A stretch of DNA of 64,000 nt from Azolla caroliniana. Taxonomy: Eukaryota > Plantae > Polypodiophyta. The translations under genes and the position numbers were made by a program. The stretch spans positions 11,284,001-11,348,000 of the forward strand of contig JBHGNT010000013.1 of the NCBI GenBank assembly GCA_043228905.1, written 5' to 3'. Positions 683 through 64,000 of this stretch are shown here, in pieces. The first letter of the stretch is position 1. Each line of letters opens with the position of its first letter. The notes beneath the pieces were generated by a model that searched no databases, was not told the DNA's origin, and was given only the letters and a program-made list of their open reading frames with translations.

Positions 683-1929
683 TGTCCCTTCGAACACAAC
701 TTCAAATATGTGTCTCCGATTCGGCTCCGGAAAACCTCAACTTGACGGTTTCCCCGATTCGGACATGTCAGTTGATGTGGATACCAGACGGTCTACATCC
801 GGGTATGCAATGACATATGCAGGGGGAGCTGTATCGTGGCAGTCGAGGCTGCAAAAGACGGTTGCATTGTCAACCACGGAGGCGGAGTACATGGCGGCTG
901 TGGAAGCTGGCAAGGAAATATTATGGATGAAGGACTTCATTGGAGAGCTCGGTATCCGGCAAGATGAATACCGGCTCTATTGCGACAGTCAAAGTGCCAT
1001 CCACCTTGCTAAGAATGCGGCCTACCATTCCCGGACGAAGCATATCCAGCGAAGGTATCACTGGATCCGGGAAAGAGTAGATGACCAAGAGTTCGCGCTG
1101 ACGAAGATCCACACAGCCGAGAACGGGTCAGATATGCTGACCAAAGTGCTAATACCTGACAAGCTAGATGCATGTAGGAAGCGGATCGGACTAGTAAGAC
1201 TGCCCATGCCGGAGTGAAGGGGGAGTTTGTTGGGAAACAGGTCCCTCCAGATGGGAAGGGAGAAGAGCAATGTTGATGAGCAAACTCGGCCGAGGCCGAA
1301 ACCGGATGAGAAGTACCCGGCTACGGAGAGCCGGATGGTGAAGACCCGGTGAGAACCGGATGAGGTGTACCCGGCTACGGAGAACCGGATGGTGCAGAAC
1401 CGGTGAGAACCGGAAGAGGAGTACCCGGCTACGGAGAGCCGGATGGTGAAGACCCGATGAGGAGTGCTCACCGGATGAAGAGACATATTCGTAAATATGT
1501 TTCTGAGAGTCCATCGAGGCTATATTTGTAAATAGCCGAAAAGTCATATTAGTATAAATATGACTTAGGGCAAACTTTTATTAGAGTCGTTGTCATTCTT
1601 GTTGGTGTAAGAAGAGAGTGTGTGTAACAGTGTACAGAGAGAGAGAGAGAGGAAGAGGTCGTTGCCTCCGTTGTAACCGCCGCCTGTGGCGAAGGTCGTG
1701 AGCGCGAGGTCGTTGCCTCCGTGAGCTCACTGTTGTAATCATTGTGATATAGTGATAGTTTGGAGTCTGTGGATTCCCATGGTTTTTCCCTCTCAGGGTT
1801 TTCCACGTTAAACATTCTGTGTACTTTTCTCTCCTTTGTGTTGTGTCTTCACCTTTCCCGTTTTTTGTGTATGATTCTAAGCTCGGTTGTGGCCGAGCGT
1901 TGCGCATAACGAGCGTTTAGTTCTCGTCA
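683..1929 (+). mobile_element. 3' end of Ty1/copia element: RT end/RNase H, PPT and 3' LTR (1228-1929)
   Basis: ORF 708-1217 has STSGY, VALSTTEAEY, LYCDSQSAIHLAKN and HSRTKHI; purine tract GAAGGGGGAG precedes TGTTGGG...GTCA; LTR matches the solo LTR at 10548-11414. Confidence 0.95.
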
Positions 1930-29448: not shown

Positions 29449-29847
29449 CCACGTGGAAATTAGATCAGAAAGGGTGGGACGCAAATATTGCCTTCGTCAG
29501 CCAGGTGATGCGGCCACCACCACAGGATCAAGACATCGTAAACCTCAACCTCAGGACTAGTTATTGCATGCCTCCTTGCTTGCCATTTGGGAGGGAGGGC
29601 TAGAAAAGAAAGAGAAGAGGATCAAAAAAGCAAACGCAAGATTGCGTTTGCGTTTGCGTTTGCGTTTGCGTTTGAGACCGGCCAAAACAGAAGAGAGAAA
29701 CAAAGGAAGTAAAGAAAATGCAGAAACGCTAGCGAAGAAGGTAGCCTCTGCTGTTTTTTGCGTTTGGACTCAGAAGAGCGTGAGGCCGCGGATACACGCG
29801 GATACAAAACGCAGCAGAGCCTCTGCCTCTGGGACTTCGCTATAAAA
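29449..29847 (+). promoter_or_regulatory. Promoter of the small-peptide gene: G-box, CGCG boxes, TATA
   Basis: CCACGTGG at 29449-29456; (TTGCGT)n at ~29642-29673; CCGCGG and ACGCGG at ~29786-29801; TATAAAA at 29841, 85 nt before the ATG. Confidence 0.6.
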
Positions 29848-29925: not shown

Positions 29926-29944
29926 ATGAGGAGGAGTTTCGTAC

Positions 29945-29985
<41 letters not shown>

Positions 29986-30159
29986 CTCCTGCTATCCATT
30001 AATCCCAAGCTATCCATTAATTCTTATGATTGCAGTTACCATCCCTCTCTTCTTCTGCATGCGGAAGCGGCACGGCCCCTTAATCCTAACAATACACATT
30101 TCGCCTCTCCACCAATCGCCACTGTTCACATAGATTATATATGCGCTGATGAGTGCTAA
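29926..30159 (+). CDS. Candidate small secreted peptide precursor (77 aa), phytosulfokine-like DY motif, C-terminus HIDYICADEC
   Basis: aagATG start downstream of TATA; basic n-region MRR plus hydrophobic FVL-M13-LLL; AEA-ARPL; H-x-D-Y-I near the stop; AT-rich 3' flank. Confidence 0.65.
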
Positions 30160-30849
30160 TTATGGTGATTATTGGTATTACTTCTGTACCCCTCCATTAA
30201 AGTTTTTGGTAGTGAGTTCTGTATTAGGGTATCCAGAGCCTAGTTCTTGTAATGAAAATGGTTCCTGAACAGTAAATTAGCGATGTAATTCATGTGATCT
30301 TATATTCTGCATAAGAATCATTGAGCTTTTATGCAAATCTTTTGTTTCTATTCTGTTTACTACTAGTATATTCTGCATATATTCCCGCAAATATGATTTG
30401 AAAATTTCCCAAAGTCTACAACAATATCAGGAATCTTTTATAATTTGAATAAGGTCCTGCGATTGTAAAATGAAACCGCTTGGATTTTGTGAGGTTCCCA
30501 ACCTCTTTATTGCGCTTGAATACAATCAATCGACGACGATAACATGCGATTAATCTAATCAGTGATTCGTAAGGAGCTTAAAATTGCGTTGATTCCTCTG
30601 TGGTGGATGGATGCTAGGTCGATCCATATGTCAGTGATGATGGCTGCCCTGAAATTCTTAAATAACATGCATAATTTGTAGCAGGCCATGTCCATTTAAA
30701 AGCTTCATCAAATGACTTGCAAATCATATGTCAGTGATGATGACATGTGGATGGGATCTTAATTGCCATGGAAGTTAGGGTTTTGCCTTGAATATTGAAA
30801 CTAATATATTAGAAGTTCTAATTTAGAACAGAAATTCGCTCAAATGTTG

Positions 30850-31900
30850 AGACCTAACTATTGGAACCAAAGGATCAATGGTTCAAGACTTAATAAAAGA
30901 AGTAGAGGCCACTATAATGCACAAATAATTAAGAAAGGAAAGTGTGGTCCCTACGGCCTTGCCTAAATTCCCAAGACCATGCACACATGCCCACGAATTC
31001 TCAACTCCCGACTCTAAGCGATAAATACCTACATGTGGTCATTGCAAAAAGAAAGGGTCATACAAATGAGCAATGTTGAAAGCTCCAACGAAAGGAGTTC
31101 GAATTAAAGGGCAAGACTCCTGGTGACCAACCGCAAAGGCCAGTTACTCAATATTCTTGAGGTTCCTACTCAACATCAAAGTAATTGTCCATGTTCTTTT
31201 CTACAACATGTACTAGGACCTAATGATTTGCTTCATGCCAATGGACTTATCAAAGGTCTTCAATATATTATTTATTTGATTTTGGTAGCTCACATAATTT
31301 CATCAATTATCATTTGGTTCAGATGTTGGGACTTTAGCCAAGCCTAAGTGATCGTACTTACCAAGTCCATCTAGCGGAGGAGTTCAATATGGAATGATTC
31401 ACCAATTGCCAATTCATATAGATGCCTATGTGGAAATTTTGGACTTTCATGTTATGAGTTCAATATGGAATGAGTCACCAATTGCCAATTCATATAGATG
31501 CCTATGTGGAAATTTTGGACTTTCATGTTATGAGTTCAATATGGAATGATTCACCAATTGCCAATTCATATAGATGCCTATGTGGAAATTTTGGACTTTC
31601 ATGTTATGTGTCCCGGATCCACTAATGTAATACTTGGTTATCCATGGGTTTTTTAATACTAATTCCACTTCATCCATTGATTGGGTCAACCATTCAATAT
31701 CATTTTCATTAAATAATTTTCAACATTGTAACATACATATAACCATACATTCATGAAGTCAATAATCAATGAGCACATGCTATTGTGATTAAGGTTAGCA
31801 AATCAATTCTAAAGGAAGGAGATTTAGGGTTTTCATACATAAGATGTCAATGAGCATCATCCCATTTGCAATGACAAAGATTTGTTGGGTACATCAAATA
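30850..31900 (+). mobile_element. Degenerate gypsy gag/protease remnant
   Basis: DFGSSHNF protease-like motif near 31278-31302 and VILGYPW near 31627. Confidence 0.6.
31380..31607. repeat. Tandem repeat, 3 x 76 bp
   Basis: GAGTTCAATATGGAATG...CTTTCATGTTAT at 31380, 31456 and 31532. Confidence 0.95.
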
Positions 31901-33076: not shown

Positions 33077-33176
33077 NNNNNNNNNNNNNNNNNNNNNNNN
33101 NNNNNNNNNNNNNNNNNNNNNNNNNNNNNNNNNNNNNNNNNNNNNNNNNNNNNNNNNNNNNNNNNNNNNNNNNNNN
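33077..33176. other. Assembly gap (100 N)
   Basis: Run of 100 N. Confidence 1.
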
Positions 33177-33359
33177 ACAACCTAATCCTGTTTGAGAACA
33201 TATTACTTAAGATAGGTATTGAATGCTGATATTCGTTTGGCATCGATTTGTATCAATACTGCGGGTATCTATTATATGTATCAATTTGAGCTAAACTTAT
33301 AATCCATATCAGTTTTTTTTGGGGGGGGGGGAGAGCGGAAAAAAAAATCCACAGAGAAA

Positions 33360-36300
33360 ATGGGGACCCACATGAATTCTGGACACCACAGTGCTAGTGC
33401 CATCTCTGTCTCGGCTCGATCATCCATCGACATCAATCCTGCCCATGAATCCTGCACAGACGGCACTACCCTGACGACCCAAAAATTTATACGAGCCTCC
33501 ATCTGTCTCAAACTCACTATATTCGTGGGATTGTTGGTAAAAATGTGTTATTTAAGAAAGCATTTTCACGTGATTTTTTGCTTTGCTACCATTGAGTAAA
33601 TATATGATTTGATATTAACCAGTCAGGTGATTGCTTGCAGGTAGTGCTGGCCTCAGGTATCCCCGCATTAGTTCTGTGGTTGAAAACACATGAGCAACTT
33701 GTAAATGAAATCGAACGTCGGCTTCTCACAGTTTCTACTCTGAGGCAAGAACAGCTCAAAGACTACTTAGATAGTGAGAGCGACAAGGCAGGATTGATTG
33801 CAAGCCGAGTTTTGATCAATAACTTATTAAGTCACAAGCCAGGAGCAAACAATAAGAATTTGGCCGAGTATGATTTGAACCTAGCCATCTCAGTAATATC
33901 GGATTTTATGTATGCGTCCATTTACGATGCGTATGGGAACTTGATTCTGTCAACAGGGGAGTCATTGGGCCTGAATATAAGGGAAACTATGAATGTTAGC
34001 TCGTTGATTAAACAATCAGATCATTTGAGGGTTGGCCATCCTCTACTAACTTCCAAAGGATGGATGTATAACATGTCCCATCCAATCTATCAGGTAAGCA
34101 TGAATAGCGAGCTCTTCAAATATCAAAGTGCAAACCTAGATGCTAGGTTTAGGTAGATCATCCTTGTGTTAGCCAGGGTACTACATTGGGATGTTCAACC
34201 TCACCTGTAGAAGCTCTACAAAATGCTATGTTCTAACATGCAATATGGGGGAATCATAGCGAGACAGAGTTTGAGGGATAATGAAAACTTGAATTGGGAA
34301 TTAGATGGTCATGCATTGTTAAATTCAATCTTAATGTTGTCTGAATATTGTAGAATACAACACTTATTGGAGTGCTATTGACTTGGGTGAATGCATCGAA
34401 ATTGGGGGCATTAGTATATGACAGAACAGGGCTCCAGCAAACTGGTGAATTGCTAGTCGGCATCCCGCAAAACTCAAATATGGTCCATCTACTATTCCCT
34501 GCATTACAAAACATCAACGTTACTATGGTTAAACCTGATGGTGCAATGGCCCGAGCTATAGCTGGAGAATCAGGAGTATTGAGACAACGAGACTACAGTG
34601 GTGCAAGTACCATTGCTGCTTACACACCTGTCGAGTTCATGCACTGGGGTGTGTGAACTTGCTCTTTAGATTTCTTTTACTTCATTGTTTCATATAAGAT
34701 TGTAAGAAAGTATATTATATTTTAGTTCTTTCTTTCCAAACTTGTTTTACTGACTCTTGAGTATCATTTCCTCACTAGGGTTAGTGGCAAAGTTGGATGT
34801 TTACGAAGCATATGCACCAGTCCAAAGTGTTCGGATTGTCATCATTACGACAATAATTGTTCTCGTTGCCTTGGGGGTGATGGCATCATTAGTATTAGCA
34901 AAGGTGAGACCACATTGTTTTGCCCTCCCTGAAAACAGAAGTGCCATTATTGTTAGCCTTGTGTTTCATGTGGTTTTGGGCAAGTAGCAAGATATAGAAT
35001 AGAATCTAATATTATATATTGGGTGGCTTTACAGGTCTTCACTAATCCAATCATTGAGCTAGGAAGAGCAGCAGCATCACTTGGTGAAGGTCATATGAGG
35101 ACCCGGGCACGGAAAGGCACTTTCATCCTCCGTGATGAAATAGCTGACCTCATGGACACTTTCAATAGCATGGCCCATGAAATTGCAAGCAATCAAATCA
35201 TGTTGGAGCACAAGGTCAATCAATTAATATATTTGATACATCTTTTGTAATTATATTTTCTCAGATATCTAAGTAAAGTTAATTGAGAATTTTTATCGTG
35301 TTAATAAATATGTATATGTTGACATCCTTCTCTGAAGACCAGGTTGAAGAGAGAACATTGGACCTTGCCCGTGCTAACGATGGACTTGCGAAGGAAATTG
35401 AAGAGAGAAGGAGGATCGAAGCTGAGCTCCAGAAGGCCAAGGATACAGCCGATGATGCGAACCGATCGAAGTCGGAGTTCCTTGCAAATATGTCCCACGA
35501 GATTAGGACTCCCTTGAATGCCATAATTAACTTCACGGAGCTTTGCTTGGATACCCAGCTTACACCCGAGCAAAAGGAATACCTTGACTATGTAAAGTGT
35601 TGATCATGCATGGCCCTCAGTCTTCCAATTATTCTGTAGCAAATTAGTTTGACATTGTATATGTGTCTACATAATATGTATAAATTCGTAAATGTGTGGA
35701 TGTAGTTGTATTGTATGTGCATTTGCATACATGTATGTACACACGAACACACCCATATATATCATATGTATACATACACAGAAATATATACACATGCATG
35801 CAGATACATACGCATATATACACATGTATATTACTCGGGATTTGATGGTTGATGACAGGGACTTGAACTCCCTATTGATGGCAAAGGCAAAAGCTCTCTA
35901 ATTATGTATATGTGCTTGGTTCAGGTTTCCTTTGCATCACAACATTTGCTACGGCTCATTACAGACATCCTAGACTTTAGCAAGATTGAAGCTGGTAAAT
36001 TGCAGATGGAGGAGGTGCAGTTCTCATTGTATGATCAGCTGGAGCATGCTGTCTCAGTTCTTGCGGCACGTGCTTTACAAAGTGGCTTAGAACTATGTTG
36101 TTGCATTGCATCTGATGTTCCTGACCAGATAAAAGGGGATCCAGGAAGACTACTTCAAATATTTGTGAATTTGATTGGTAAGTTAACATTGACACTGCTT
36201 TATATATTTCTGGTATACATACATATAATTAATTACATATACAGTTTGCAGATGTCTGTGTGTGTAGAGATACATACGTACATACATATATACAAATATA

Positions 36301-39300
36301 GAACATAATTTTGTACCTACATACATGCATATATTTTTGCGAACATACATCCATACATGTTTATGTATGTGCATCAGAGGTGCATCAGAGGCTTCACCAT
36401 AAAAGTTGTTTATGAGCATACACATAGTCCTTCCATTCCAAGTATATATCTAGATCATAGCTATCCACATTGTGCCCAGCCATGTGGACATCCATTTACT
36501 GTTGGTTTACTCCAATATCAATTGATTCTGGGGGGGTGATGTATCCACATGACATAAGTTAAAAGATCAACACTTTGACAACAAATAGAACTTTGATTTT
36601 CAATTCTTCCCATCATGTGCATTTATTAATGTCTTTGCATACTTCTGTTATCATCCAAGGGAAATTAATTTCTTATTTATGTGGTAAGAGTAAGGCTTGT
36701 CAATATATCCTGCAGGTAATGCTATCAAGTTTACTGAGAAAGGTGAAGTGGTTGTATATGCATCTGTTGAAAACAGGAATGAGGATTCAGTTGAGCTGAA
36801 GTTTGGTGTCAAAGATACTGGTAACACTTCACTTGCATACCTTTATGAAAACAAGCATTGGTGTATTTTTCATCACCTCTTGCTATAGTGTTTTCCTACA
36901 CATCATTTTGTAGGCCTTGGTATCCCTCCTGAGAAACAATCATTGCTATTTAAAGCTTTCTCACAAGTAGACTCTTCTACACACAGGTTAGATACTCTGT
37001 TTTAAACAATCATTGTGATAAATTTCTCTGAAGTACATTCTTCGAGGCACAAGCTTTGAAAGTAATTTGCATTTTTTTTAAAAGTTTTCAGAAAAGCAAT
37101 ATCTCCGAAATTAGTATCCTTTTTTCCTTTACAACCGTCACATGATATTATTATCCGCTTGTATAGATTTATGCATTATTTCTTAATACGTTATATCTTA
37201 TAAAGTTCAATTGTCCCTGAAAATGTATTTGCGAAAAAGAGGCATTGCATCACATTTTCTGCTGCATAAAATGTTGTATTTTAATTAGTGTTCTTTGTCC
37301 ATTTGACATGCTATTCATAAAGAAATCCAACCTAAAAGGTTTACAACTTTCTGGAAAGATTATTATACTAAGGGAAATGAATCTGGTACAGACTTTATGG
37401 AGGAACAGGGTTAGGCTTAGTGATCTCGGCGAAACTTGCTTCAGCCATGAATGGAAGGATGTGGGTCGAAAGTGCTGGAATAAAAGGGCAAGGAAGCACT
37501 TTCTTGTTCAGAGCAAAATTTGGGACAGTAGAATCAAACCGCTGCCCACATGTTTATAGTTTCAAGGATGCAAAAGCACTTGTGGTGGATAACAGTGATA
37601 CGATTTGTCAAGTGCTAGTTGCGTTGCTTCAGGTTGTACTATCACTCCTTTTCTTTTTCTTATGGAAAATGACTTCTGTTTTCCTTTGTTCAGGATAGTG
37701 ACATCTTCTGTTGCTAGGTTTTAGACATTAATTCCCCACTTCCCTTATGTTTTCTTACAATCTGTAAACATATGAGGTTTGGCATAATAAGCCACCTATG
37801 TATCTACTGCCTCAGCCTGTTGAAATGCATGTCGTTAGGTCAACATACGCAATGCAGGCTCTTGAAATTGTTAAAACAGAAAAAGGTAGTCCTTCAAGGT
37901 AAATTTTTATCAATCTTTTGGTGCAGGGGTTCGAGATGATAGCAGACAGCGTGACAACTGTTGAAGCAGCACAAATCACTTTGACAGCGGCATCTCAATC
38001 AGGTGCAAAATACAACGTTGTGTTACTTGATATGCAGCTCGAAGGCACCCCTGCAGATGAGCTGGTTCATTTTCTTCGACAAGAGCCGCAATATGTTGTT
38101 CGATACACTTCATCTTCCGAAGCAGAGGTATCACAGTGATATAGTTAGATTGGTAATTAAGGCATAAATAGATGGGTACACTGTTTTGAGCCCATTTTTT
38201 CAGTAAAAAACTCAATGATTTTGTCAATATTCTATATTTAGTTTCTAGGCTTAGAAATATCAACTTACCGATATAAAATGGGATAGTTAACCACTTATTG
38301 GATGCTACTTTCTGACCAATCAAAACACTGTTATATATTTTGAGAGACAAACTATAATCAATTTGTTGAGCCCTCATTTAATGCAGAGGGAGGACGGAGA
38401 GAGTTCAACAAGTGCTCAATCATGTGGCATAGATTGTATCATAATGCTGACATCTGTCAATAACACCGATACAGCCAGGTGTCGTATATAACTTTATGAT
38501 CAAATTTTCATTTCCTTTTGGTGCCATATCAAGTTGTACTGTATACGCAGACATATATATTTAAATCTATTTTTCCTACTCTCTAATGTAAGGTGCAAGG
38601 AGCTTGGAATAGGTTGTCACATATCGAAGCCCATCAAGAGAGCCTTATTAGTGAGGTCTTTGCATGAAGTTCTAGGTATCAAAGACAAATATGATATGGA
38701 GGTATAATTATTCTCCTTGATTCAAGAATAATAAAACATTGCTCATGTGCTTTAAAGTTGCTCATGTGTAATAAATATTGTGATGCTCAATCTGTAGGGG
38801 AAAACGGTGAAAGCAGAAAATATCCCTAGTAAAAGCCTCTATATCTTAGTTGTTGAGGATAACCTTATAAATCAACGGGTAGCATCGATATTGTTGAGTA
38901 AGTGGGGGCATACATTTGTTATGGCCAAAGATGGAGAAGAAGCTGTTGAACAGTGGATGAAGGAAGATTTTGACATTGTTTTGATGGATGTAAGCGAGAC
39001 CATATTACTGAAATAACCCATTAAAGTTTTCAATTTGTTTTATTGTTGGTTCATTTGGTTTAACATTTTTCTACATTCTATAATCATGAGTTTCTCTAAA
39101 AGGACAACCGGATAAGCGTTGTAGGTTCTAATGCCAGTTTGTGATGGATTCCAAGCAACACAGAAGATTCGAGAGTTGGAGAAGAAATTGAATAGACCTA
39201 AGCACACTCCAATTGTTGCTATGACTGCTCATGCAATGTCCGGAGATGGAGATCGTTGTATTGCATCAGGCATGGATTTCTATATTAGCAAGCCTTTAAA

Positions 39301-39522
39301 TGCTAAGAAGCTCCAGGAATTGATCCAAGTAGTAGGAGCTCAGGGACAATACACTGAATCTTCAATCTGGTATGTTCTGAAATGTTGTCTTTATGTACAC
39401 ACACACATCTCTCTCTCTCTCTCTATACCCACATATATATCCTTCGTTCTGAGTATACATACACATAAGTATACACAAATAAGTGAATATGCCCTCTTCT
39501 TGGAATGTCCCCAATCTGAAGA
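33360..39522 (+). CDS. Membrane hybrid histidine kinase (~996 aa): TM, extracellular Cache-like domain, TM, HAMP, HisKA, HATPase, REC, REC
   Basis: GT-AG exons 33360-33536, 33641-34093, 34354-34648, 34779-34903, 35035-35214, 35343-35591, 35925-36177, 36716-36820, 36914-36986, 37392-37632, 37927-38127, 38387-38478, 38593-38701, 38798-38989, 39125-39369 join in frame, with stop TG|A completed by the next exon. H-box [14 protein letters not shown]; N-box [14 protein letters not shown]; G1 VKDTGLGI; F-box LFKAFSQVD; G2 YGGTGLGL; two receiver domains. Confidence 0.93.
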
Positions 39523-40899
39523 TGGGATATAGGGACCTGCTGGTCAGTTTTGTGATCATTTTTTGTAAAAATCATGGGGTTTTGCCTCACGTTGAGGTTT
39601 CTCACTAGTAATATAATGTGACACAAAGACATTTGCTTGTATATATAGTCCGAAACGTATGTGCACATGCATGCAACATGCATCCATCCTAAACCCTAAA
39701 CCCCATACCCTATACATACACGCATATGTACGTAGATATACATGTGTTGATACTCACAGTGGACACACACACATACATATTTATGTATGTGTATCTATAC
39801 ATATACATACACATATACACACACATATTTATACATACATGTGTGTGTGTGTTCATCTCCTATGCTCTGTGCTTGACTGACCTGAATTTTTTATGGTTAT
39901 GTTTGGTCTTATGTAACATGGCACAGATGGAGGGTGATGACATGTTGTGTTCCTCATTCAGATCGGTAAATAGGTTCTGCTACACTATCGACAGCCAAAC
40001 AAAACTATGTATAGAAGTGCACATTCCAAGGTCTACACAAAGAGGAGGTTTTGTAGCCGTTTAGCAATACAATCTAACATGACATTCATTGGCGTTGATG
40101 GATGTTATGTATATATATATACTTAACCGCTGATTTTTTAACCCATAAAATTAATGGGTTCTTTATAGATATTTACATGGCATGGAAATTTAAGTGCTTC
40201 TAATTGTAAAGAGATCTGTATATATGATGAGCTTGTATTTTTCAGGATCCAAAAGATGAAAAAGTAGGAAAAAATAACTAATCTAGCTAACAATAGGGTT
40301 GTGTCAAAATTTATTGCATGATCGAGAGGTTTCATGTTCTCATATCATCAAAAAAGAATTTACATGATTTTTGCAAAGGAAGGATGTGCGGAAGAATTTA
40401 ATCTCTCCTGTCATGTGTGTATGTGAAATCGTTGGGATGCTTTTTTGCACTTTCTACCATCTTTTGTATTTGAGTCGACAAACCGGTGTTCCATGATGTA
40501 ACTTCATGAGTTGACTTGTAATATATTAGATATTTATTAGAATGAAAAACATAATGCTTAAGTATGTCCAAGCTTGATAAATGGAAGGGAAGCTAATATA
40601 AAAAGAACGCTACACTGTCTCATGTACTTTTGTTGAGATTAGTTATAACCTTGGCTTTGTTGTATCAATGTTTTATGTCAATGACTATAAAGTTTTAAGT
40701 GAAAGAAGATGTTATTTGAGAACTAAGCTTTTGTTCTCTTCCTCCCACCGTCTCTCTTTATCGTAGGTTCCAAACTTTCTCATTTTTTTAATATCAATTG
40801 TTATTTGCTCCATGTTGTACAAGTTCAAACTCATCCAATGGGTCATATGTTGACCTTCATTAATGTTATAAAATCTCTCTCTCTCTCTCTCTCTCTCTC

Positions 40900-42887: not shown

Positions 42888-45800
42888 TGTTGTGAATGTG
42901 TGTCCCTCCTGATGGGGGAAGACTAGTCGGATTCGGCCGAGAGGCCGAAAATGGGTCAGCTGGTCGAAATCGGCAGGGAGGCCGAAAATGGTCCAACTAG
43001 TCAGATTCGGCCGAGAGGCCAAAAACATATATATATATATAAGGAAAATAAGTTATGAAAAAATTATCATTTATGATGTGAATAGAGATAGAGAGGGTGA
43101 GAGAGTGTAGAGAAGCGATGAGAACATCAGAGATAGAGTGTAAGTGACAGAGAGCATGAGAGACAACAGAAAAGAGGAGAAAGAAGTGTAGACAGAAGAG
43201 AGGATCATTTGTGGACTCTAATGCAACCGTAGGAGTGGTTTCAAACAGTCTCCCAAGCCAAGTTTAGTAGTTCCTTGTTCTCCATACCATTTTCTGTGAG
43301 CTTTGTTTAGTGATACGAAGCATGTCTCATGGTTGTGGTTCTGTCGGAGCATTGGTGTTCTCCTAGCAATCTAGGGAGTTAGATAACTACTTGTACACTC
43401 TCCTATATCATAGTGAAGTTTTGGTGACCGGAGAGCACCCTTGGTTTTTCCCTGGTTTAGGGTTTCCATGTAGATCCTGTCTTTTGTTTCGTGCTTGTGT
43501 TTTAGGTTTTCTGTTTATATTGTCTCGGATCCTAATCCTTACAAACTAGTATTAGCGCATTAGGTTCTAGATGGAAGGAAAAATGAGCGGTTTTCCAGGA
43601 ATGATAGTCTTAGACTCCCATAAATACTCTAACTAGAATATCAAGATGGAGGATGTTCTAATAGTTAAGGATCTATATGAACTGATAGATAGGAAGGAAA
43701 TACCAATGGGGGTAATAGAGGCTGAATGGAAAATCCTAAATAGAAAGGTGGTGGCAACCATCAGATAATGTGTAGACATGAGCATCCTTTTGCATGTGGC
43801 AAACGATACAAACGCCTATGACCTGTGGCATAAGCTCTCTAATCTGTATGAAAGGAAAAATGATCTCACCAAAGCTTCCCTAATGAGAAAGTTGGTGAGG
43901 TTAAAGTAGATAGATGGTGATAACATTGTGGTGCACATTAATACTTTCATGGTGTTAGTAAACCAACTAGCATTAGTGAGGTTTCCATTAGATGATAGCA
44001 ATGGGCTCGGTTTCGGCTCAAACCGAACTGAACTGAAAAACCGTGGCTTAACGGTTTATAAGTTCAAAGATAAATAAACAGTTTGGTTTGATTTCAAATG
44101 TTATTAATCGGTTTCGGTTTGGTTTTGAATTGACCGGTTTATCGGCTTATCAGTTTCTGTTTATGTGGTTCAGTTTAAAGGTTTATAGGTTAAAAAATAC
44201 TCATAAATATTCTCTATAAGCTCTAACTTTTAACTTTTAATTTTAAATTCTTGTTTTAACTTATTAAAATTTATATATATTATATGTAGAATCTCCTTTT
44301 TATTTATGATGATCATTAATGATAAGTATAATGATCAAATTTATGATTAGTATGATTACAAATTTATGATAAGTATGATGACAAAATTTTATGATAAGTA
44401 TGATGAATAAATTTATAATAAGTATGATAATTAATATCAATAAAAAATGGTTTGGTTTAAAATTTTTCATAAACGGTTTGGTTTCTCCTATTCTTTAAAC
44501 GGTTTGGTTTAACGATTCGGCTCTAAACAGTTCAGTTTAAATGGCTTCATAAATTTTAAAATAGTTTGGTTCAGTTTTTATTATTAATAAATGGTTTGGT
44601 TTGGTTTGGTTTCAAGGCCAAGAAACCGAACCGGGCCCATTTGATGCATTACAGGACCCGTTACTATTTTGTTCCCTACCAGAAAGTTGGGAAAACCTAG
44701 TACTGTCACTTAGTGCCTCCTATCAAGAAGAGAACATGTCTTTACAAGTAGTAAAGACAAGCCTTTCTAAACGAAGAGACAAGAAGAAAAGATAAGAGTG
44801 TCTTGCCTCAATCGGAAGCGAATGTGACACAACCTTGGTAGAGGAAGAAGTAAATGTAGGAGTTCTCAAAATAGAGACAAGGCCCAAGCTAGGTCAAAGT
44901 CTAGAGGAAGACTCATGTGTTTCTATTGTGGGAAACAGGGTCATTTCCAAAAGGACTGTAAACACCTTAAGAGAGACAAAGGAAATCCTGATAGTGTTGA
45001 GCCTAAAAAAATTTCTGATGAGAGAAACACCTCAACGATTGCAGCCAGTGAGGAAGGAATATTATTCATCTGCGAACAAGCGAGTGTGAATCTTGCAAAT
45101 GTTGAATTCTCTTGGGTAGTTGATTTTGGTGCATCATTTCACCTAACTCCCAAAAGAGAATGCTTCTCATCTTACACAGTCGATGACTATGGCTATGTGA
45201 AGATGGGAAATAATGGTGCATTCAAGATTGTTGGTATAGGAAATGTGTGCTTATTAACATCTACTAGCTATAGGTTAATATTGAAGGATGTACACCACGT
45301 TCTAGATGTGAGATTAAATCTGATATCGGTTGGACGACTGGATAATGAAGGCTACAATGGTAGCTTTCATAATGGTGCATGGAAGTTTTGCAAGGGAAAC
45401 CAAATCATGGCTTGAGCACAAAAGCAGAACACATTGTATGTAATGCATGCAAGGTTGCGCCGAGATGAAACAAATCTAGTGGCTGACTCAAATGGCGAGT
45501 TGTGGCATAAAAGGCTCGGCCACATGAGTGAAAGGGGAATGCATATCCTTGTTGAAAAAAGTGAAAGGAATGTATCTGGAAAAATTTGTGGATTGCTTGG
45601 TTGGAAAGAAAAACAGGGCAACCTTTCACTCTAGGCCTCCGATGAGAAGAGAACGTGCCCTAGAACTGGTCCGCACAGATGTGTGATATGTGGATACTCA
45701 ATCGCATTGTGGTGGACAGTACTTTGTGACATTCATTGATGACTTCAGCAGAAAGTTGTGGGCTTTCATGCCGAATACTAAAGAGCAAGTGTTGTCGGTC

Positions 45801-47292
45801 TTTAAAGAATTTTATGCGAGGGTTGAAAGAGAATCTGGATAGAAGTTGAAAGTTGTCCGAACAGATAACAATGGTGAGTATAGCTGCCAATTTGAGCTAT
45901 ATTGTAAGACCCAAGGCATCAAACTTGAGTATACAGTGCCGAAGACATCTAAGTTGAATGGCCTGGCAGAGAAAATGAATCGGACCATAATGGAAAGGGT
46001 AAGAAGCATGTTATCACATGCAAAATTGCCGAAATCTTATTGGGCTGAGGCAATGTTGACAATTGTCTATCTTATAAACAAGTCTCCCTTAGCGCCTCTA
46101 AATGATGATGTCATGCAAAGGGTGTGGATAGGAAGAAACGTCTCTTACCAACACTGGATAGGAAGAAGCTGGACAACAAGTCCAAGCCATGCATATTCTT
46201 GGGGTACTCAGAAGATGAGTTTGTGTACATGCTATGGGATCTCCTTGACAAGAAAGTGGTGAGGATCCGTGATATTGTATTCATGGAAGACAAGATGACG
46301 GAAGATTGGAGACAAAAGCAACTAGTGTCGTCTTCCTAGCCAGCTACTGTTATGGAGTTCGTAAGATGAGTCGGAAGAAGAAACCAAATTGGAGCCAATT
46401 GCTAAAGGAAGAAGATATGGACTTAGGCAAAGGAAGGCCTCCTCTCGGTATCCAACCAATCAATATGTTCTACTGACTGATGAAGTTGAGCCGGAATGCT
46501 ATGAAGAAGCCATGACAGATGTGCACAAGGAGAAGTGGTATTGTGCCATGCAAGATAAGATGGATTCCTTGCATGAGAACTACGCCTATGAGTTGATGGA
46601 GTTGCCTGAGGGAAAGAAGGCACTTAGAAACAAATGGTTTACAAGTTGAAAACTGGAGAAGACAACAGTACACCTCAGTATAAGGTCCGCATTGTGGTGA
46701 AGGGGTTTCAGCAAAAAACGGGTGTTGAGAGGCCGAGAGGCCAAAAATGGGTCAGCTCGTCATAATCGGCCAAGAAGCCGAAAATATACATATATATAAG
46801 GAAAATAAGCTAGGGCAAAATTATCATTTATGATGTGCATAGAGATACAGAGGGTGAGAGAGTGTAGAGAAGTGTAGAGAACATCAGAGACAGAGTGTAA
46901 GTCACAGAGAGCGTGAGAGAGAACAGAAAAGAGGAGAAGAAGTGCAAACAGAAGAGAGGAGCATTTGTGGACTTTGATGCAACCCTAGGAGTGGTTTCAA
47001 ACAATCTCCCAAGCCAAGTTTAGTCTTTCCTTGTTCTTACCATTTTCTGTGAGCTTTGTTTAGTGATACGAAACCCATCTCACAAAAGCATCGGAGTTCT
47101 CCTAGTAATCTAGGGAGTTAGATAACTAATGGTACACTATCCTATATCATAGTGAAGTTTTGGTGATCGGAGGACACCCATGGTTTTTCCTTGGTTTAGG
47201 GTTTCCATGTAAATCTTGTGTCTTTTGTTTCGTGCTTGTGTTTTAGGTTTTCTGTTTGTATTGTCTCATTGTCTCGGATCCTAATCCTTACA
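42888..47292 (+). mobile_element. Ty1/copia element with internal deletion of most RT/RNase H and the start of the 3' LTR
   Basis: 5' LTR 42888-43543, degenerate PBS, gag/PR/INT fragments (CFYCGKQGHF, VRTDNNGEY); RT breaks near 46727 directly into LTR sequence ending at 47292; TSD GATAA/AATAA. Confidence 0.9.
44000..44641. mobile_element. AT-rich MITE-like insertion in copia gag
   Basis: Inverted ends AATGGGCTCGGTTTCGG / CCGAACCGGGCCCATT; AAACCG/CGGTTT subterminal repeats; interrupts FPLDD-ALQ. Confidence 0.8.
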
Positions 47293-48893: not shown

Positions 48894-51800
48894 TCAGGTA
48901 GATCTGGTGAGTACAGCCATCTCTTGGGAAGTTGGTGATGGTAGCAAGAGAAATTGACCACTTTCTTCCTCTTCCTCTTCCTCTTCCACTCTATGTTGCT
49001 GCGATGATCGGTCGGGGCCGACACCAGCCCCGACACCAAGACCGATTTGTGGAGCATGAACATCATCCAAAGTTCCCTCGGGCAGAAGCATGGTCAAGAA
49101 GAGGAGAGGTGCAAGCCGGAGGAGCGCACGAACAAGCACTGCTAACCAGAGGTGACCATAGTCAAGCCGTGTCACATGCATGTATCGTAACAGGAGTGCC
49201 CCTGCCCATGACGCGCATGTTGCCCCGAAATTCGACAGTGACATCAGGAAAGCAAACACAGTTCCCTCAATCCCGGGTGGGCATAACCGTGCAGATAATA
49301 CCATGAAAGGCATGAGTTGGAGTCTCCCTATCACGTCCGTTACCGCCTCATCCCCAATCACAAACATGTGGTCGGGTATCCCCATCTTCACATTCCACCT
49401 GCACACTATGATTATGTCCAATAGCCCAATCACGCAATATGCTACCTGCACACCACATGCATAACAATCCGAAGTAATGATGATCATGTTAAACAACACC
49501 GACATTGAAACTAATTGTCGTTAAAGCTTGCTAATTACACTATGCACGCACAACATGTCATATGATGGATGCATCTACTCCATAGGAATGCATTTGCATT
49601 TGCCCAGACAAATATAAGATTAAAAAACATATTAATTAAAGGAGTCTGAATTTCTGCATCACACATGCATATGTGAATACAAATGTATGTGTTTATGTCT
49701 GTGTCTATCTTTTTACAAAGGGATCTTGAGCCCTACATTTGCATACACAACAATATCATCACCAACAACAAATGAAAGAGTTCTGTGTATTTCTTTCATC
49801 ACGCATGCATATGTGAACCTATATATATCTAAATATGTGTATAAGATGAAGAGCATATAAATCGACGAATTCTGTGATAGTGCGTAATTGAAAACAACTT
49901 CTTTAAAACAAATACCTGGGGCCAAAAGAACATGTTCCGAATGGTGTAGAACCGAAACCAGCAGTTATACAAACCAATCCCTCCAATCATTGCCACATAA
50001 GCAATGCCAGTAACAAAACCTATAAACTGCTCACTGAAACCAGGCCCTACTACTGGATCAGTGAACCAGTAGAACATAGCCTCTGAAATGTCCGGGCACA
50101 GACTCTGCACAATGGTCAGGTATTACTTTGTTTGTTTCTGGTTACTCTCCTTTGATTGTTTGAAAGTATGAAATAATCAGTCAACTTAGGTTATCGGTCT
50201 CTTATTTCTTCTTATGCTCTAGTTTCCTAGAGCCTTGGTTCTGGTAGGGTCAAAAATTATAACAATTGGTCTACTTAGTTTTTTTCCTTTTAAGGGTGTC
50301 AATTCAAAGTTGATTTGGCATTTGCAGCCATTGAGTGTGGGAATTTATCTTCGAATCTATGCCTTACAGGCATTGTTGTTATAATACACGTATTTTATGT
50401 TGAGAATATGTTTTAGAATACTCTAAGTATTCTACACAGATTCTACATTTTAGAACTGCTATTTTAAAATGGTTCACGCATTATAGGTATTTAATATATT
50501 CTAAATATTTAACATTTCCAATAAAAAATTAAATCTTAAAATTTTAAAAAATAAATTTGGCCAAATTACAATTGCTAGATACATTACCATTATAAAAATT
50601 ATTTAACGTATTAAATATATTCTACACATATTTTATCTTTAGAATACTTACTCTAAGTATTTAAAAAATGAGGAATACTTTTGGAATGTGTGGTATATGT
50701 ATTGTAAGCGTTTTGTATTTCTAAGTATTCTACAACCATGCTCACAAGGCGTCTCTTTGCCCATCTATGTAATATGATTAAAGATTAATTGCGAATAAAA
50801 ATCACTGCTGCTAGTCTTTTGCCTATGTAGATGATATGATTGAATATTAAATGAGAATGAGAATTGATCCTCTTTTTTCTATACCTGTGAAAGGTAAATA
50901 AAAAGTGCCGGTTTCCAGAAATTAGGATCTCTCAACGTTTGGATGGAAAGCTTAATCGTCTTTACCATATCTCGTAATCTGGCTCCATTAGGATCCTGAG
51001 GGAGTCTTTTTTCTGGAAGGGCCCTTGCAGCAACTAGAAGCATAAGTGGTGCTAGTGATATCAATAAAAAAGATCCCCTCGGTCCAAAAAAATGAACAGA
51101 TGCTCCAGATACAGCACATCCAATCAATCCACCTACAGATAAGCTGCCCCATGACAAACTCTGTATAAACGTAAGTCAGCAATATTCTGGTAAATACCAA
51201 GCAAATCAAGTTGTATTATCTTTAGAAAGGTGATTGATGATGTTATGAATGTTCACAAGATTTACATTTAGAATTTATCAATCATTAAAAGCGATTTTTT
51301 AATCCTATATTGTTAGATTCCTATTGAAGAGTAGAATGAGGACATGGAACTGAACCTCTAGAGTGTGCATGGATAAGTTCCTATCCTATGCCTTCGAAAT
51401 GTGAAATTACACTGAACTCATCACAACATTTAGATCTATAGTAGAGGGCATGGATGCTAATTTATTGAAAACTAGTTCCTTCTGTTTGTAATATGAAATC
51501 ATCTTTTGCAAGAAATTGCGTGTCTGAATAATGGCGCAATGGATTAAAATAGAAAACTCACACACAACTTAGGCATAACAGTGAACTGTGATCTTTCTTT
51601 CCAAACGTTCATTTGAAAAGAAGCTATGTAGGTATGAACTTCAGAAAGTGAATTTAACAGCATGTTAAAAGGATTTACAAGCAGGAAAAACTGAACAGAC
51701 AGCCTCATAGATTCACAGAAAGCATTATATGATCTAACAAAAAGAATCTCCCACGGGAACTAATTGAAGTTTCATACCCTTGGTTCAGAAATAAAAAATT

Positions 51801-59068: not shown

Positions 59069-62000
59069 TTACTGTATGGATGGATCAACCACTTTCTTCC
59101 CCTTCTTCCCTTTTTTTTTTCCAGATCTAACTACTTCAAAATCATTCTCATCCTCCACAGCTTTTCTATTTATAGTCTCTGTCCATTTCTCCCTCTCTAA
59201 GGAATTCAACTCATCTGTAATTACAGCATCACTGGTTGGGAAAACCACACGGGCTAACTCTGGTGAAATTGACTCCTTTCGTCGAAGAAATTCAGCCTTG
59301 AATGCCTCCACTATAGGTCCATCACCAAGATACATTGTGAGATAATCACCAGCTTCAGATACAGATGGTACACCCATGCAAAACTCTAAAAGAGACATGT
59401 CTGCAAATCAAAGTTAAGGCTCCAACAATGCAATATTAGTCGAACATCTTTTCTTAAAATGTAAAATAAAGGATACCGCCCTTTCCACTAAATCGTTTTA
59501 TCTGTTCTTCACACCATTGTCGAAATGCTTTTGCTTCAACGACACTAGATGTCTGTTGTCCATTTTCTGCTACTAAATCTACGATTAGTCCTATAACAAT
59601 GAAATAATATATGAAAAGAGTCATACACAAGAACATACCTTCAATATGTTTGCTTAAGACCTTAACTGCAGGTGACTGGGTGACTGTTGTCTTTAATGCC
59701 CTACCTACTGTTGCATGTGGATGCATGGTTCCGTTTGCTTTGGATAAATGTTCTGCCATAGTTTGTTCCTTCTTTGACGGTGTCTTCTGATCCATCCTGA
59801 GATGAGAGCAATATGAGTTAGACAAGCCTTGCAAAAAGAAAATGCAACAGCACTAATCATACTGTAAGGAAGATTGCTTTAAAAAGTCACCGTTCTGACT
59901 TTGATGATTGTTTCCTATTTTCTGTATTTGTATAATTCCAGAAAAGCTCATCATCATTGCTGATACCCATCTTTGACTTAGGGTTTTCCTGAGATACTGT
60001 TTGAGCTTTAGAGTGACCTGTTGATTGTAACGTCGACAGCAGAGGCCTTTGCCATGCAGATGTGTTATTATTTATGGGTACTGCTGAGCTAGACACTCTT
60101 GGCGACACAGACTGTATCTGTTGAGCAACTTGAAGATTTTGTTCATGTTCATCCCTTGCCTTTTTCTCTGCTTCTTGGATCTCTTTCAGTGACTTCGGAG
60201 CCTTTGCCTGTTTATTTGGAACCGTAGACCATGCACCTGAGGAGAGGAAACTTCCTCTTTCTTCTTTGATTGGCAAATCAAGTCCTAATGAAGGGCTTGA
60301 AGGGATTACAGCAGGGGGGCATTCATCCACTCCCATGCTCATTTCAGAAGTTTTCTCCGGGATGTATAAAGCTGCTGAAGAATCAGGTATTGGAACTGCA
60401 ACCATCTTACCAGCCTTACCTTTAACACCCTTCTTGTTTTTCTTTGTATCTTTTGTTTCTACAGTATCAATATCATCAGTGACTATGTGAAAAGATGGGC
60501 TCATTGATGCAGACACATCTTCATCTCGTATATCATGTACGTTATCAACATCGCCATTTGCAGACAGTATGACTGCGCTATATTGTATTGGCTTTGTCTG
60601 TGCATCAAAAGACGACATAACTTCAGAATCTTCTTCAATTGGAATACCAGATTTGATCCAGGAATCAGCTTCTAAAGAAAGTGATGATAGCTCAGATGAC
60701 AATGGCCCACATATGTGTGGCTCCATGTGGGCATCTGCCTCATCTTTTGTTATATTTGTAGCCATTATGTTGTTAGAAGGCATGACACCATCCCAAGAAG
60801 GTTGGGGAAATGGATTCAGCTGGTAATGATCACTAGAAGGTCTTGGAATAGATGATGCTTCAGTCATAAACATTGAATTTGACACCGCACTTCCATCTGA
60901 TGGCAAAGGTGAACGCAGAAGCCTCAGTAATTCTTGACTAGTTAACTGGCGGTGTCCATTACCTTGCAGCTGCTGCATTCTCAAGACATTGTCTTGATTA
61001 TCACCTGAAATCTGCATTAAATGCTCAGCATTGGAAAATCGTTGTGCTTCAATTATATGATCATGCCTATGATCTATATCCTGTTGCCATGACATGCCAG
61101 ATGACTGTTGTTGCCTACTTTTCTGGTTCATCCTTGCATCTCTACCATACATTTTTAGCAGATCCAACTCAACATCCTGAGGTCTCCAACCCCTGCCTGC
61201 AGCAGCTTCATTTGATTCTACAGGGAATGATTGATTCCTGCTAAATAGCTCGGCTTCAAAAGGTATCGGACTGTGTGAAGGTAAATTATTGTGTCCTTCA
61301 AACCTTGGTCTTTGTGCTTGAAGGACTGATAAAGAACTTGTGGGCATCATTTCTGTTCTCAACACTCCACCACGCAACACTGAAATATCCCTTTCTGGTT
61401 GTTGTAGACCCACCATCGTTTGCATGCCTAGTTTTGGTGACTGCAATTGAGAAAAATCTGAATTATGCAAACCTGGAAGATCTACCTGTAGACTTTGACC
61501 CCAATGATGTACTGCAGGAAAGCTTGGATTACGCTGCAGCAGGTGTAATTGTTGCTGCAAGAAGGCTTCATGATTAGGCTGCATCGGAACAGATGCTTGA
61601 GTACGTACAAATTGCCCAAATTCATTGACCTCCCACACTCCAGATACACGTTGCTCATCCAACTTCATCTGCTGCTGTTGGATCAAGTATGCCCGCTGTT
61701 GCTGATTTTGTAGCTCTTCTTCCTGTTGCCTCTGCAATAAGAGTTGAAGCAATGGATCTTCCGACGATCTTTGATGCAAGTGCTCTAGCTGATGCATATG
61801 CATATCAGTAACTCTCATGTTATCATGCATGAGCCGCATCTGATCTGATGGAGGAAATTGTTGTTGCTGCCTTGACAAATGTTCCAAAAGTGGATGTGAA
61901 GGCAACAGTTGCTGTTGAAGCCTCAAGCGTTCCTCCAGATGTGGACCAGTAGCAGGACTCTCAAAGTTGCTTTGCTGCTGCAATCGAGATGACATATGTG

Positions 62001-64000
62001 AAGATGGTAATTGACGTGGGGAAGCCAATTGTTGCAAGGGATGTGATGAAGGAAGGTGATGGAAGACATTCGGGTTAACATCCGGAGGAATTACTGGGTT
62101 GCTACGTTGATCCAAGTGGGAAACTGGTGGCTGGTTCAAAAGTTCTTGCAGTAAATGATGCTGTTGTTGTGACTGATGTGGATGGGGAATACCAGATTGT
62201 GAGAGCTCCAGTTGCTGGTGTAATTGAAGCTTCTCAAGCTGAAGAAGTTGACGCATGTGGAATTCATCTAAACCATGCGAGGAAGAGCTCTCTGTCTGCA
62301 AAGGATCATGCCACACCCCGTCCTGCATCAATGTGACTGAAGAAGATTTGTTTGATGTGGGATGAAGTCCTGGCTGCCAAAACTTGGCTCGTGGTGTTTG
62401 CAACCTTGGGGATGCATATCCATCTGACACTTCTGGGAATGCAGTGGCACTAGTCGGCCATTGTTGTGAAAAAAGAGATTGCTTTGATGATTCCATTTTG
62501 TCTATCTCTATTTCAGGAAATGCAGACATCGTCCGCCGAATGTTGTCAACAAAAGCCTTTGCCGGCATTACGTCCATGCTCTGCTCGCCTGCCTCAAAAA
62601 CTTTATCTAGTGTAGTATACAAAGATAAACTCTATTAGAGTCTAAAATCATTTCACATGGCAAATGGGAAAAGGATAATCCTTAAAAGCAAACCTGACCT
62701 CTTATAGCATGAGTATGTCGAGATTTGGGATCAAGTACAGACTCAGAATGTATGGAAGTGACATCAAAAACTTTGTCTGCTGTAGTAGTACACATTAATA
62801 AATTCTATTAGGGTAGGAACTTATTACACCAACCATAGAAAAAAAAGAATCCTAAATAGTGGAACTGACCTCCTCTAGTATGAGAATGTTGAAATTTGGG
62901 ATCAATTACATCCTCAGAATGTATCAATGTGTGTTCATTACCTTCAATTTGTCTCATACGCTCTACCGATAGCTGTATGGTGGATTCTGGCAGAAAATTA
63001 GTCTCTACAATGGAATCCTCTTTTTCAGGCTTTCTAGCGGCCTCACTTTCCCAGGGCATTTGGGATTCTGTTTTCAAATGAGGCATTATGTTACCTAATG
63101 GAACAAATGGTGCATCTTCAGGGGCATCAGCAAGACGGACTGGAAGATCTGTACCAAAATAACCTAGTTCAAACCAACTGATAATATCAACCCCCATGAA
63201 AGGTCCTTGGATCACTCCTTGTGGATCGGTATAGTAGAAGGAGAGAACTTCTTGGTCAGTCAAGACTTGTTTTTCTTCTAAAAGCTCCTTTTTTTCCTGA
63301 TGATCCATGCTTCTTGGAAGTCTCAGGTCTTCCATGCATTGCACCTCTACATGTTCATCAAATTCCTCTGCCCTCCTACCAGTCATTACAGAGTTGCCAC
63401 ATTCCAGATTAACTGCTCCAGCAAAACCAGCAAAATGACTGGCCTCATTTTCACTGGTGCCAACATCTAGAGTATATGAACGCAAATGAGCCAGATCATT
63501 TGTGTTGTTTGTAATATCACCTGCATAATGGACACGATACAAATCAGTACAACCTCCAAAATTTTCACTCACAACAATGAGTTCACCTCACCCTCTTGCT
63601 GGATAACACGGTCAATCGGTTCAACTGCATTTGATGCACTACTGATCTCTGTTTGGCCTAGAACTTCTTGGGGAGTTTCATATTTGACAACTGTTGAAAT
63701 CGATAATCATAATATGAGCAAGAAAACTGGTATGGGAAGAATTCACTATAATAAGAAACTCTAACCTTCACCAAAATTCTGATTGAAATCTTGATGATTT
63801 CTTGCATCTTTAAGACCTGAGATAATAGCACCACTGCTTGCAATGTTACCTTTCCAAATCTCTTCTAGAGTAGCCTGCCAAAATAGGAAAAGAAAACACA
63901 AGTTGGAAGGTGGCAATAAGCATATATACATGTGACTGCAAGAATGAGCTCACATCTTCCTCCACATCAGGTGTGATAAAAGCTAAAGGCTTAACACATT
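59069..64000 (-). CDS. GYF-domain protein (EXA1/PSIG1/GIGYF-like), 5'-partial
   Basis: Exons ending 63954, then 63874-63766, 63690-63592, 63520-62870, 62776-62699, 62606-59891, 59796-59639, ~59566-59477, 59400-59069; GYF motif FYYTDPQGVIQGPFMGVDIISWFELGYFG; KPLAF..P..EE..LEEIWKG; SLKEIQEAE; FRQWCE; D.SLLEFC. Confidence 0.9.

Follow-up and report, generated by a model that had tools for sequence, protein, structure and literature searches.

Two groups of plant peptide hormones are distinguished, small modified peptides and cysteine-rich ones (PMC13660686). Phytosulfokine (PSK), the reference system for the gene described here, comprises PF06404 precursors and the receptors PSKR1/2 (LRR-RLK X). 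Seed-plant PSK precursors from five species end A-H-[TV]-D-Y-I-Y-T-Q (PMC8462819 supplement), a second source likewise gives H-x-D-Y-[IV] as common to seed-plant PSK precursors (10.1101/2022.12.21.521402), and in the PSK gamma, delta and epsilon variants position 2 can be V and position 5 can be N (PMC11534595). Substrates of TPST are searched for by their hallmark Asp-Tyr, and the enzyme is reported from ferns (PMC8462819). In PSK, subtilases cut between L and HTD and between D and YIYTQ; CLEL6 and TWS1 are cut before DY (PMC13082318). According to a BLAST survey PSK is first found in gymnosperms (PMC13074997); the same survey missed fern RGFs reported elsewhere (PMC8329595). The PSK panel in the PMC8462819 supplement has no fern row, and the two bryophyte PSK entries of that paper lack the Asp and are not precursor-like.

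The window, a stretch of 64,000 nt, corresponds to C13:11284001-11348000 of a 523 Mb genome in 1503 contigs and contains a small intronless gene, P0001 (Table 1). Re-reading of the sequence and its translation bore out the original prediction of a TATAAAA at 29841 followed by an intronless 77-aa ORF with 13 Met at 29926-30159, hidden in a longer frame (148 codons from stop to stop, from 29713) and keeping H-x-D-Y-I at an end that continues CADEC (HIDYICADEC-stop). No ATG occurs between the TATAAAA and the start codon at 29926. The signal region of the window copy is odd in its poly-Met stretch, in which the 13 Met are encoded by an (ATG)13 repeat at 29947-29985. A candidate signal cleavage site is predicted by the (-3,-1) rule after S24. 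The interval from the hydrophobic core to AEA-ARPL is unusually long, a 13-bp direct repeat is present at 29991 and 30009, and there is a third Cys (C36). The predicted mature peptide would start at D70 (30133) or Y71 (30136) and include Cys73 and Cys77. A Pfam search with P0001 gave nothing meaningful, an ESM Atlas search with P0001 and the relative P0008 gave no usable match, and a PDB profile search returned a single irrelevant match (E 3.2). The AlphaFold2 model of alignment A4 has a pLDDT of 60.9 and a pTM of 0.13 and is uninformative.

Table 1. Coordinates of the peptide gene and associated features in the window, and of the three further motif-ending genes in the same genome
Feature	Position	Strand	Basis or remark
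P0001 CDS, intronless, 77-aa peptide precursor	29926..30159	+	ORF translation; near-full-length relative P0002, start and stop at matching positions
TATAAAA, TATA box candidate, 85 nt 5' of start codon	29841..29847	+	Sequence; function inferred
Predicted signal peptide: basic MRR start, hydrophobic core residues 4-27 including (ATG)13	29926..29997	+	Hydropathy
AEA-ARPL segment, second candidate cleavage site (after A48)	30061..30081	+	Sequence; role inferred
Conserved end H-x-D-Y-I-C-A-D-E-C	30127..30156	+	Alignments A1, A3, A4; codon comparison
Probable 3' UTR; AATGAA at 30251	30160..30277	+	X1 contig end at 30277; a single run, guessed to be RNA; an RNA end cannot be proved by contigs
Hybrid histidine kinase gene, intron-containing, first exon with its own ATG at 33360	33360-39530	+	Weak dCache_1, HAMP, HisKA, HATPase_c and receiver matches
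L004, 92 aa, NEDYICANSC-stop	C1; exons 1066-1144, 1239-1306, 1396-1527		Single clean gene model
L008, 129 aa, HTDYVCADSC-stop	C10; oriented exons 802-931, 1066-1154, 1357-1527	-	Single gene model
L009, 87 aa, HPDYVCADSC-stop	C13; exons 1116-1304, 1453-1527		Single gene model

Transcription of the gene is weakly suggested by one contig from one run, X1, whose status as RNA is a guess. This contig covers 29997-30277 without gap, joint or splicing and spans the second half of the ORF, ending 118 nt past the stop and about 20 nt past AATGAA; splicing at cag 30036 is absent from it. Absence of transcription, which would speak against a gene, is thus contradicted by a contig that runs through the stop to 30277, but only as far as X1 is RNA. 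X1 depth was present in 6/30 bins of an 11-kb stretch. A second run, X2, gave no cover there, and the missing cover over the kinase gene carries no weight as evidence. At 31380-31670 the window has a short tandem repeat with two X1 contigs at a depth of 2-3, which may derive from copies elsewhere.

Four genes in the genome end D-Y-[IV]-C-A-[DN]-[SE]-C-stop: the window copy, L004, L008 and L009; L017 (C498) is a duplicate of L009 (97% identical). The first exons of L004, L008 and L009 are signal-peptide-like, their introns are GT-AG, and SRPL and SRHI stand directly behind the signal regions of paralogs. A genome protein search with P0001 returned itself and one repeat-driven match but no paralogs, which were found with DNA patterns for the C-terminus; L002 (E 1.35) is an antisense match driven by a repeat and not a relative. 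Similarity by blastn among the four genes was nil in 6/6 pairs. The four products have nothing in common beyond a predicted signal peptide and the motif at the C-terminus; their pro-regions are variable. Differences in the eight motif codons are largely silent, with five silent and no replacement changes between L008 and L009, while the window copy differs from the other three genes by 3-3.5 replacement changes.

Loose patterns were not enriched, with 14 and 12 genome matches against about 15 expected for each. Therefore two sharper tests were applied, a free-tail statistic and a fixed gene-model rule. D-Y-[IV]-C-A-[DN] with a free tail has 20 matches in the genome, five of which continue x-C-stop. 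With the query and the duplicate-contig copies L076 and L077 left out, x-C-stop follows in 3/17, which at a chance of p=0.0018 each (window trinucleotide model) gives P ~4e-6. The fixed rule, which combined splice sites with a signal-like N-terminus, was run on 12 of the 14 loose-pattern loci, two duplicates being left out. It produced a signal-peptide model at 4/4 'CA' loci and at 0/7 other stop-ending loci (L015 has no stop), in a test that was not blind, as the rule had been tightened after its first version missed L009. At the level of sequence, the four genes thus form a real family, small and conserved, whose products are predicted to be precursors of secreted peptides. Further matches to the loose patterns DY[IV]C-x3-C, DYxCAxxC and HxDYxCx[DN]xC (L005-L007, L011-L015, L019-L023, L027, L029, L054 and L057) include no motif-ended signal-peptide gene. 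L022 (G000 C9:2286880-2289903) carries at ~690-1540 (+) an intronless ORF of ~280 aa, whose product is hydrophobic at the N-terminus, has long Gly runs and three small Cys clusters and ends C-D-Y-R-C-A-A-Y-C-S-P-S-S; it resembles a secreted Gly/Cys-rich protein and is not of the peptide family.

The absence of homologs with a conserved C-terminal DYIC..C had been named as grounds for rejecting the gene. Homologs with DY[IV]C..C were found both in this genome and in other assemblies. Protein searches run in turn yielded P0002 (1/1 candidate passed), then P0006, P0007 and P0008 (4/31 passed) and then P0010 (5/98 passed); P0002, P0006 and P0010 come from ENA, P0007 and P0008 from JGI. P0002 is a near-full-length relative of P0001 that shares its start and stop positions and has a longer in-frame Met/Leu tract and the end DYICADQC. 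P0008 is a 101-aa single-ORF precursor with an MRR start and a Pro run before AHTDYICADQC. Its orthology to P0001 is only a guess, because the BLASTP match between them is limited to the last 10 residues. None of the database relatives has an NCBI or UniRef source, and a phmmer search of 1.84 billion proteins gave only P0002 and three repeat proteins; it may therefore be that only a narrow lineage has the family.

A pattern scan of metagenomes gave eight stretches, three of them with family members. L032 is the counterpart of L008 (82.5% DNA identity) and keeps its three-exon model. Between these two the last 10 codons are unchanged and elsewhere pN is about 0.083-0.09 and pS 0.131; as judged from this sequence pair, constraint outside the motif is weak. 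L033 and L035 are counterparts of L009. L033 differs from it in the last 10 codons by four silent changes and one replacement. L035 is either a pseudogene or affected by a low-coverage assembly error: its signal region (oriented 530-595) is frameshifted and stops early, and there is a 21-nt insertion. It is the sole copy with E at motif position 6. Across the nine aligned C-termini the consensus is D-Y-[IV]-C-A-[DNE]-[SQE]-C, with D, Y, C, A and C invariant in 9/9; of H-x-D, the H is present in 8/9 and the D in 9/9. The '(E/D)C' earlier taken as conserved does not hold, as S, Q and E all occur just before the last Cys and E is peculiar to the window copy.

The anatomy of these precursors, as far as sequence tells, is that of a plant hormone precursor, with a hydrophobic N-terminus, a fast-changing pro-region and a short conserved end. 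As in PSK, a signal peptide is predicted (4/4 genes, by a hydropathy rule only) and the mature part lies at the C-terminus behind H-x-D and starts Y-[IV]; precursor lengths are 77-129 aa, compared with 77-109 aa for Arabidopsis PSK precursors (PMC11534595). Unlike PSK, which has Y-[IV]-Y-T-[QNH] with two Tyr, the family has Y-[IV]-C-A-[DNE] in 9/9 sequences. T-Q is missing, the second Tyr of PSK is replaced by Cys, and two more residues and then Cys-stop follow. The pro-region E-E-C-L/M-x-R/K-R/K with its Cys pair, found in five seed-plant PSKs (PMC8462819 supplement), is absent here. P0001, P0002, P0006, P0007 and P0008 have no PF06404 match at E<=10, and PF06404 has no match in the genome in a search run without a positive control. 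Judged by these sequence features (no second Tyr, T-Q, pro-region Cys pair or PF06404 match), the family would resemble PSK in its working but is not PSK.

Provided that these are secreted sulfated peptides, we put homology to PSK at about even odds, and a divergent sister family of PSK is as likely as an independent family. Before its CADQC, P0008 has A-H-T-D-Y-I, comparable to A-H-[TV]-D-Y-I of seed-plant PSK. By the genetic code, Y-I-C-A-N would be two single transitions (TAY>TGY, ACN>GCN) away from PSK-delta Y-I-Y-T-N. Canonical D-Y-[IV]-Y-T-Q has four matches in the genome versus 14 in the reversed control, none of them in a precursor by inspection, and an intron or gap could hide one. 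At L039 (G000 C10:10349200-10349217, -) an exact D-Y-V-Y-T-Q-stop stands just downstream of a copia-type coding end, apparently in an LTR; no precursor was seen there and the match is probably due to chance. A possible but doubtful scenario is a fern sister of PSK, in which an ancestral H-x-D-Y-[IV] precursor would have led in seed plants to PSK, linear and doubly sulfated, and in ferns to a singly sulfated, disulfide-closed peptide with its own LRR receptor. It is plausible because H-x-D-Y-[IV] is shared, no canonical PSK precursor was seen, the PSK panel includes no fern and the distance is two transitions. The alternative to kinship is convergence on a short processing site.

Other families are more distant in form. 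PSY, RGF/GLV/CLEL and CIF/TWS1 likewise have secreted precursors with a conserved C-terminal motif that opens with Asp-Tyr. Their motifs (DY..P.AN..H.P; DY......P..HN; DY....P.P..) are Pro-rich, have 13-21 residues and, as listed, end mostly in His, Asn or Pro with no closing Cys pair (PMC8462819 Table 1), unlike the motif of this family, which has eight residues and no Pro after DY. A putative Marchantia CIF starts D-Y-C-D-C, but has 21 residues, another spacing and no terminal Cys. CTNIP/SCREW peptides are short secreted ligands whose two conserved Cys probably form a single disulfide; they are not known to have an Asp-Tyr sulfation site. The CTNIP motif is absent from the nine aligned C-termini. 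The receptor of CTNIP/SCREW is HSL3/NUT (PMC13157962). New moss families have different motifs, and one further candidate is described only as Cys-rich with a DYY region (10.1101/2024.05.13.593875). The strings DYVC, DYIC and CADSC have 0 matches in the PMC8462819 supplement, and no description of the family was found in the open-access literature, where the listed matches to motif strings were unrelated to plant peptides. The claim that the product matches none of PSK, PSY, RGF and CIF therefore stands, with neither Y-[IV]-Y-T nor a Pro motif of 13-21 residues nor PF06404. Of the claimed undescribed hormone class, the novelty of the motif agrees with open-access print, but 'class' is too strong for a family seen in only a few related assemblies.

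We consider it likely, with a probability of about 0.62, that the window gene, one of four that share the motif, encodes a secreted precursor of a Tyr-sulfated peptide of 7-8 residues that is closed by a Cys-x3-Cys disulfide and is the ligand of a receptor kinase. The hydrophobic N-terminus would direct the precursor into the ER, where the two invariant Cys would be joined; since they stand three residues apart in a putatively secreted peptide, this disulfide is likely. TPST would then sulfate the Tyr at Asp-Tyr in the Golgi. A search of the genome with PF03567 (TPST) gave one sub-threshold match, which contains stops. A subtilase would cut before or after the Asp, and going by the known cuts in PSK, CLEL6 and TWS1 the product would be Y-[IV]-C-A-[DN]-x-C, with or without the leading Asp. 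With the stop directly behind the last Cys, the C-terminus would need no cut. Lastly, an LRR receptor kinase would perceive the peptide. Sulfated peptide hormones as a kind are already known; new here is a sulfated-peptide-like precursor family with a Cys-closed end. If the proposal is right, one hormone would combine tyrosine sulfation with disulfide cyclisation and bridge the 'post-translationally modified' and 'cysteine-rich' classes. Should the family also prove to be PSK's counterpart in ferns, it would show when and how PSK signalling arose. An 8-residue synthetic peptide makes the hypothesis directly testable.

The family could also be secreted and under selection without being a hormone, its Cys serving metal binding, an intermolecular disulfide or defence and its Asp-Tyr remaining unsulfated. 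DY is no more invariant than the two Cys and the Ala, no receptor was found (a PSKR island pattern, weak evidence in either direction, has 0 matches in the genome), and Table 1 of PMC11534595 and of PMC8462819 names no sulfated family with a closing Cys pair. We regard this as unlikely, however, as three features fit a hormone precursor: unrelated pro-regions all close in a single short motif exactly at the C-terminus, the copy number is low, and H-x-D-Y-[IV] is as in PSK. The family motif is acidic and present once per precursor, in contrast to defence peptides, which are cationic and have multiple Cys, and to precursors with a repeated core.

It is quite unlikely that the family is real while the window copy itself, intronless and with a signal region remodelled by the ATG microsatellite and the 13-bp duplication, is decaying or poorly secreted. 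Its hydrophobic core is made of (ATG)13, the direct repeat at 29991/30009 and the extra Cys36 are present, and it alone has E at motif position 7; a copy of a sister gene, L035, is frameshifted, so that family copies do decay. However, P0002 retains the start, the frame through a still longer Met/Leu tract and the stop, and P0008 is likewise a single ORF with an MRR start, a Pro-rich stretch and H-x-DYICADQC. The TATA, start context and X1 cover of the window copy are also intact.

The predicted histidine kinase downstream is of the Cache-HAMP sensor type, which to our knowledge is bacterial-like and not an angiosperm type. An assembly gap of 100 N (window 33078-33177) lies between the two genes. 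The three paralogs have no kinase match within ~10 kb on either side; therefore the adjacency is probably incidental, and a functional link between peptide gene and kinase was rejected. Since the kinase starts from an ATG and a first exon of its own, the P0001 segment is not its coding exon, and the X1 contig goes against the suggestion that the segment is only a spliced 5' UTR of the kinase. A chance ORF, or a 5' UTR or upstream ORF of the kinase, is highly improbable and largely refuted: a triplet repeat readily yields an open hydrophobic frame and loose Cys patterns occur at chance rates, but the family statistics (3/17 x-C-stop; 4/4 vs 0/7 gene models), the jointless contig through the stop, the kinase ATG 3.2 kb downstream of the peptide ORF and the paralogs devoid of neighbouring kinase matches all stand against it.

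Elsewhere in the window, translated ORFs reveal broken Ty1/copia-type retroelement fragments at 600-20800 and 44800-46300. A BT1 (folate-biopterin transporter) family gene is located at 48894-49520 (-) and a GYF-domain gene at 59887-63587 (-). The genome also contains two LEAFY genes (G000 C1:641603-642648 and C21:596386-597031). These have H and R where PDB 4bhk has D/C and 9fwy/9g19 have Q/C, and agree there with 2vy1; overall they score higher against 4bhk than against 2vy1. Taken together with the small size of the genome and its at least 21 numbered large contigs, this makes a fern the likeliest origin of the DNA. We take 4bhk to be moss LEAFY, 2vy1 to be that of Arabidopsis and Q/C to be the algal/hornwort type.
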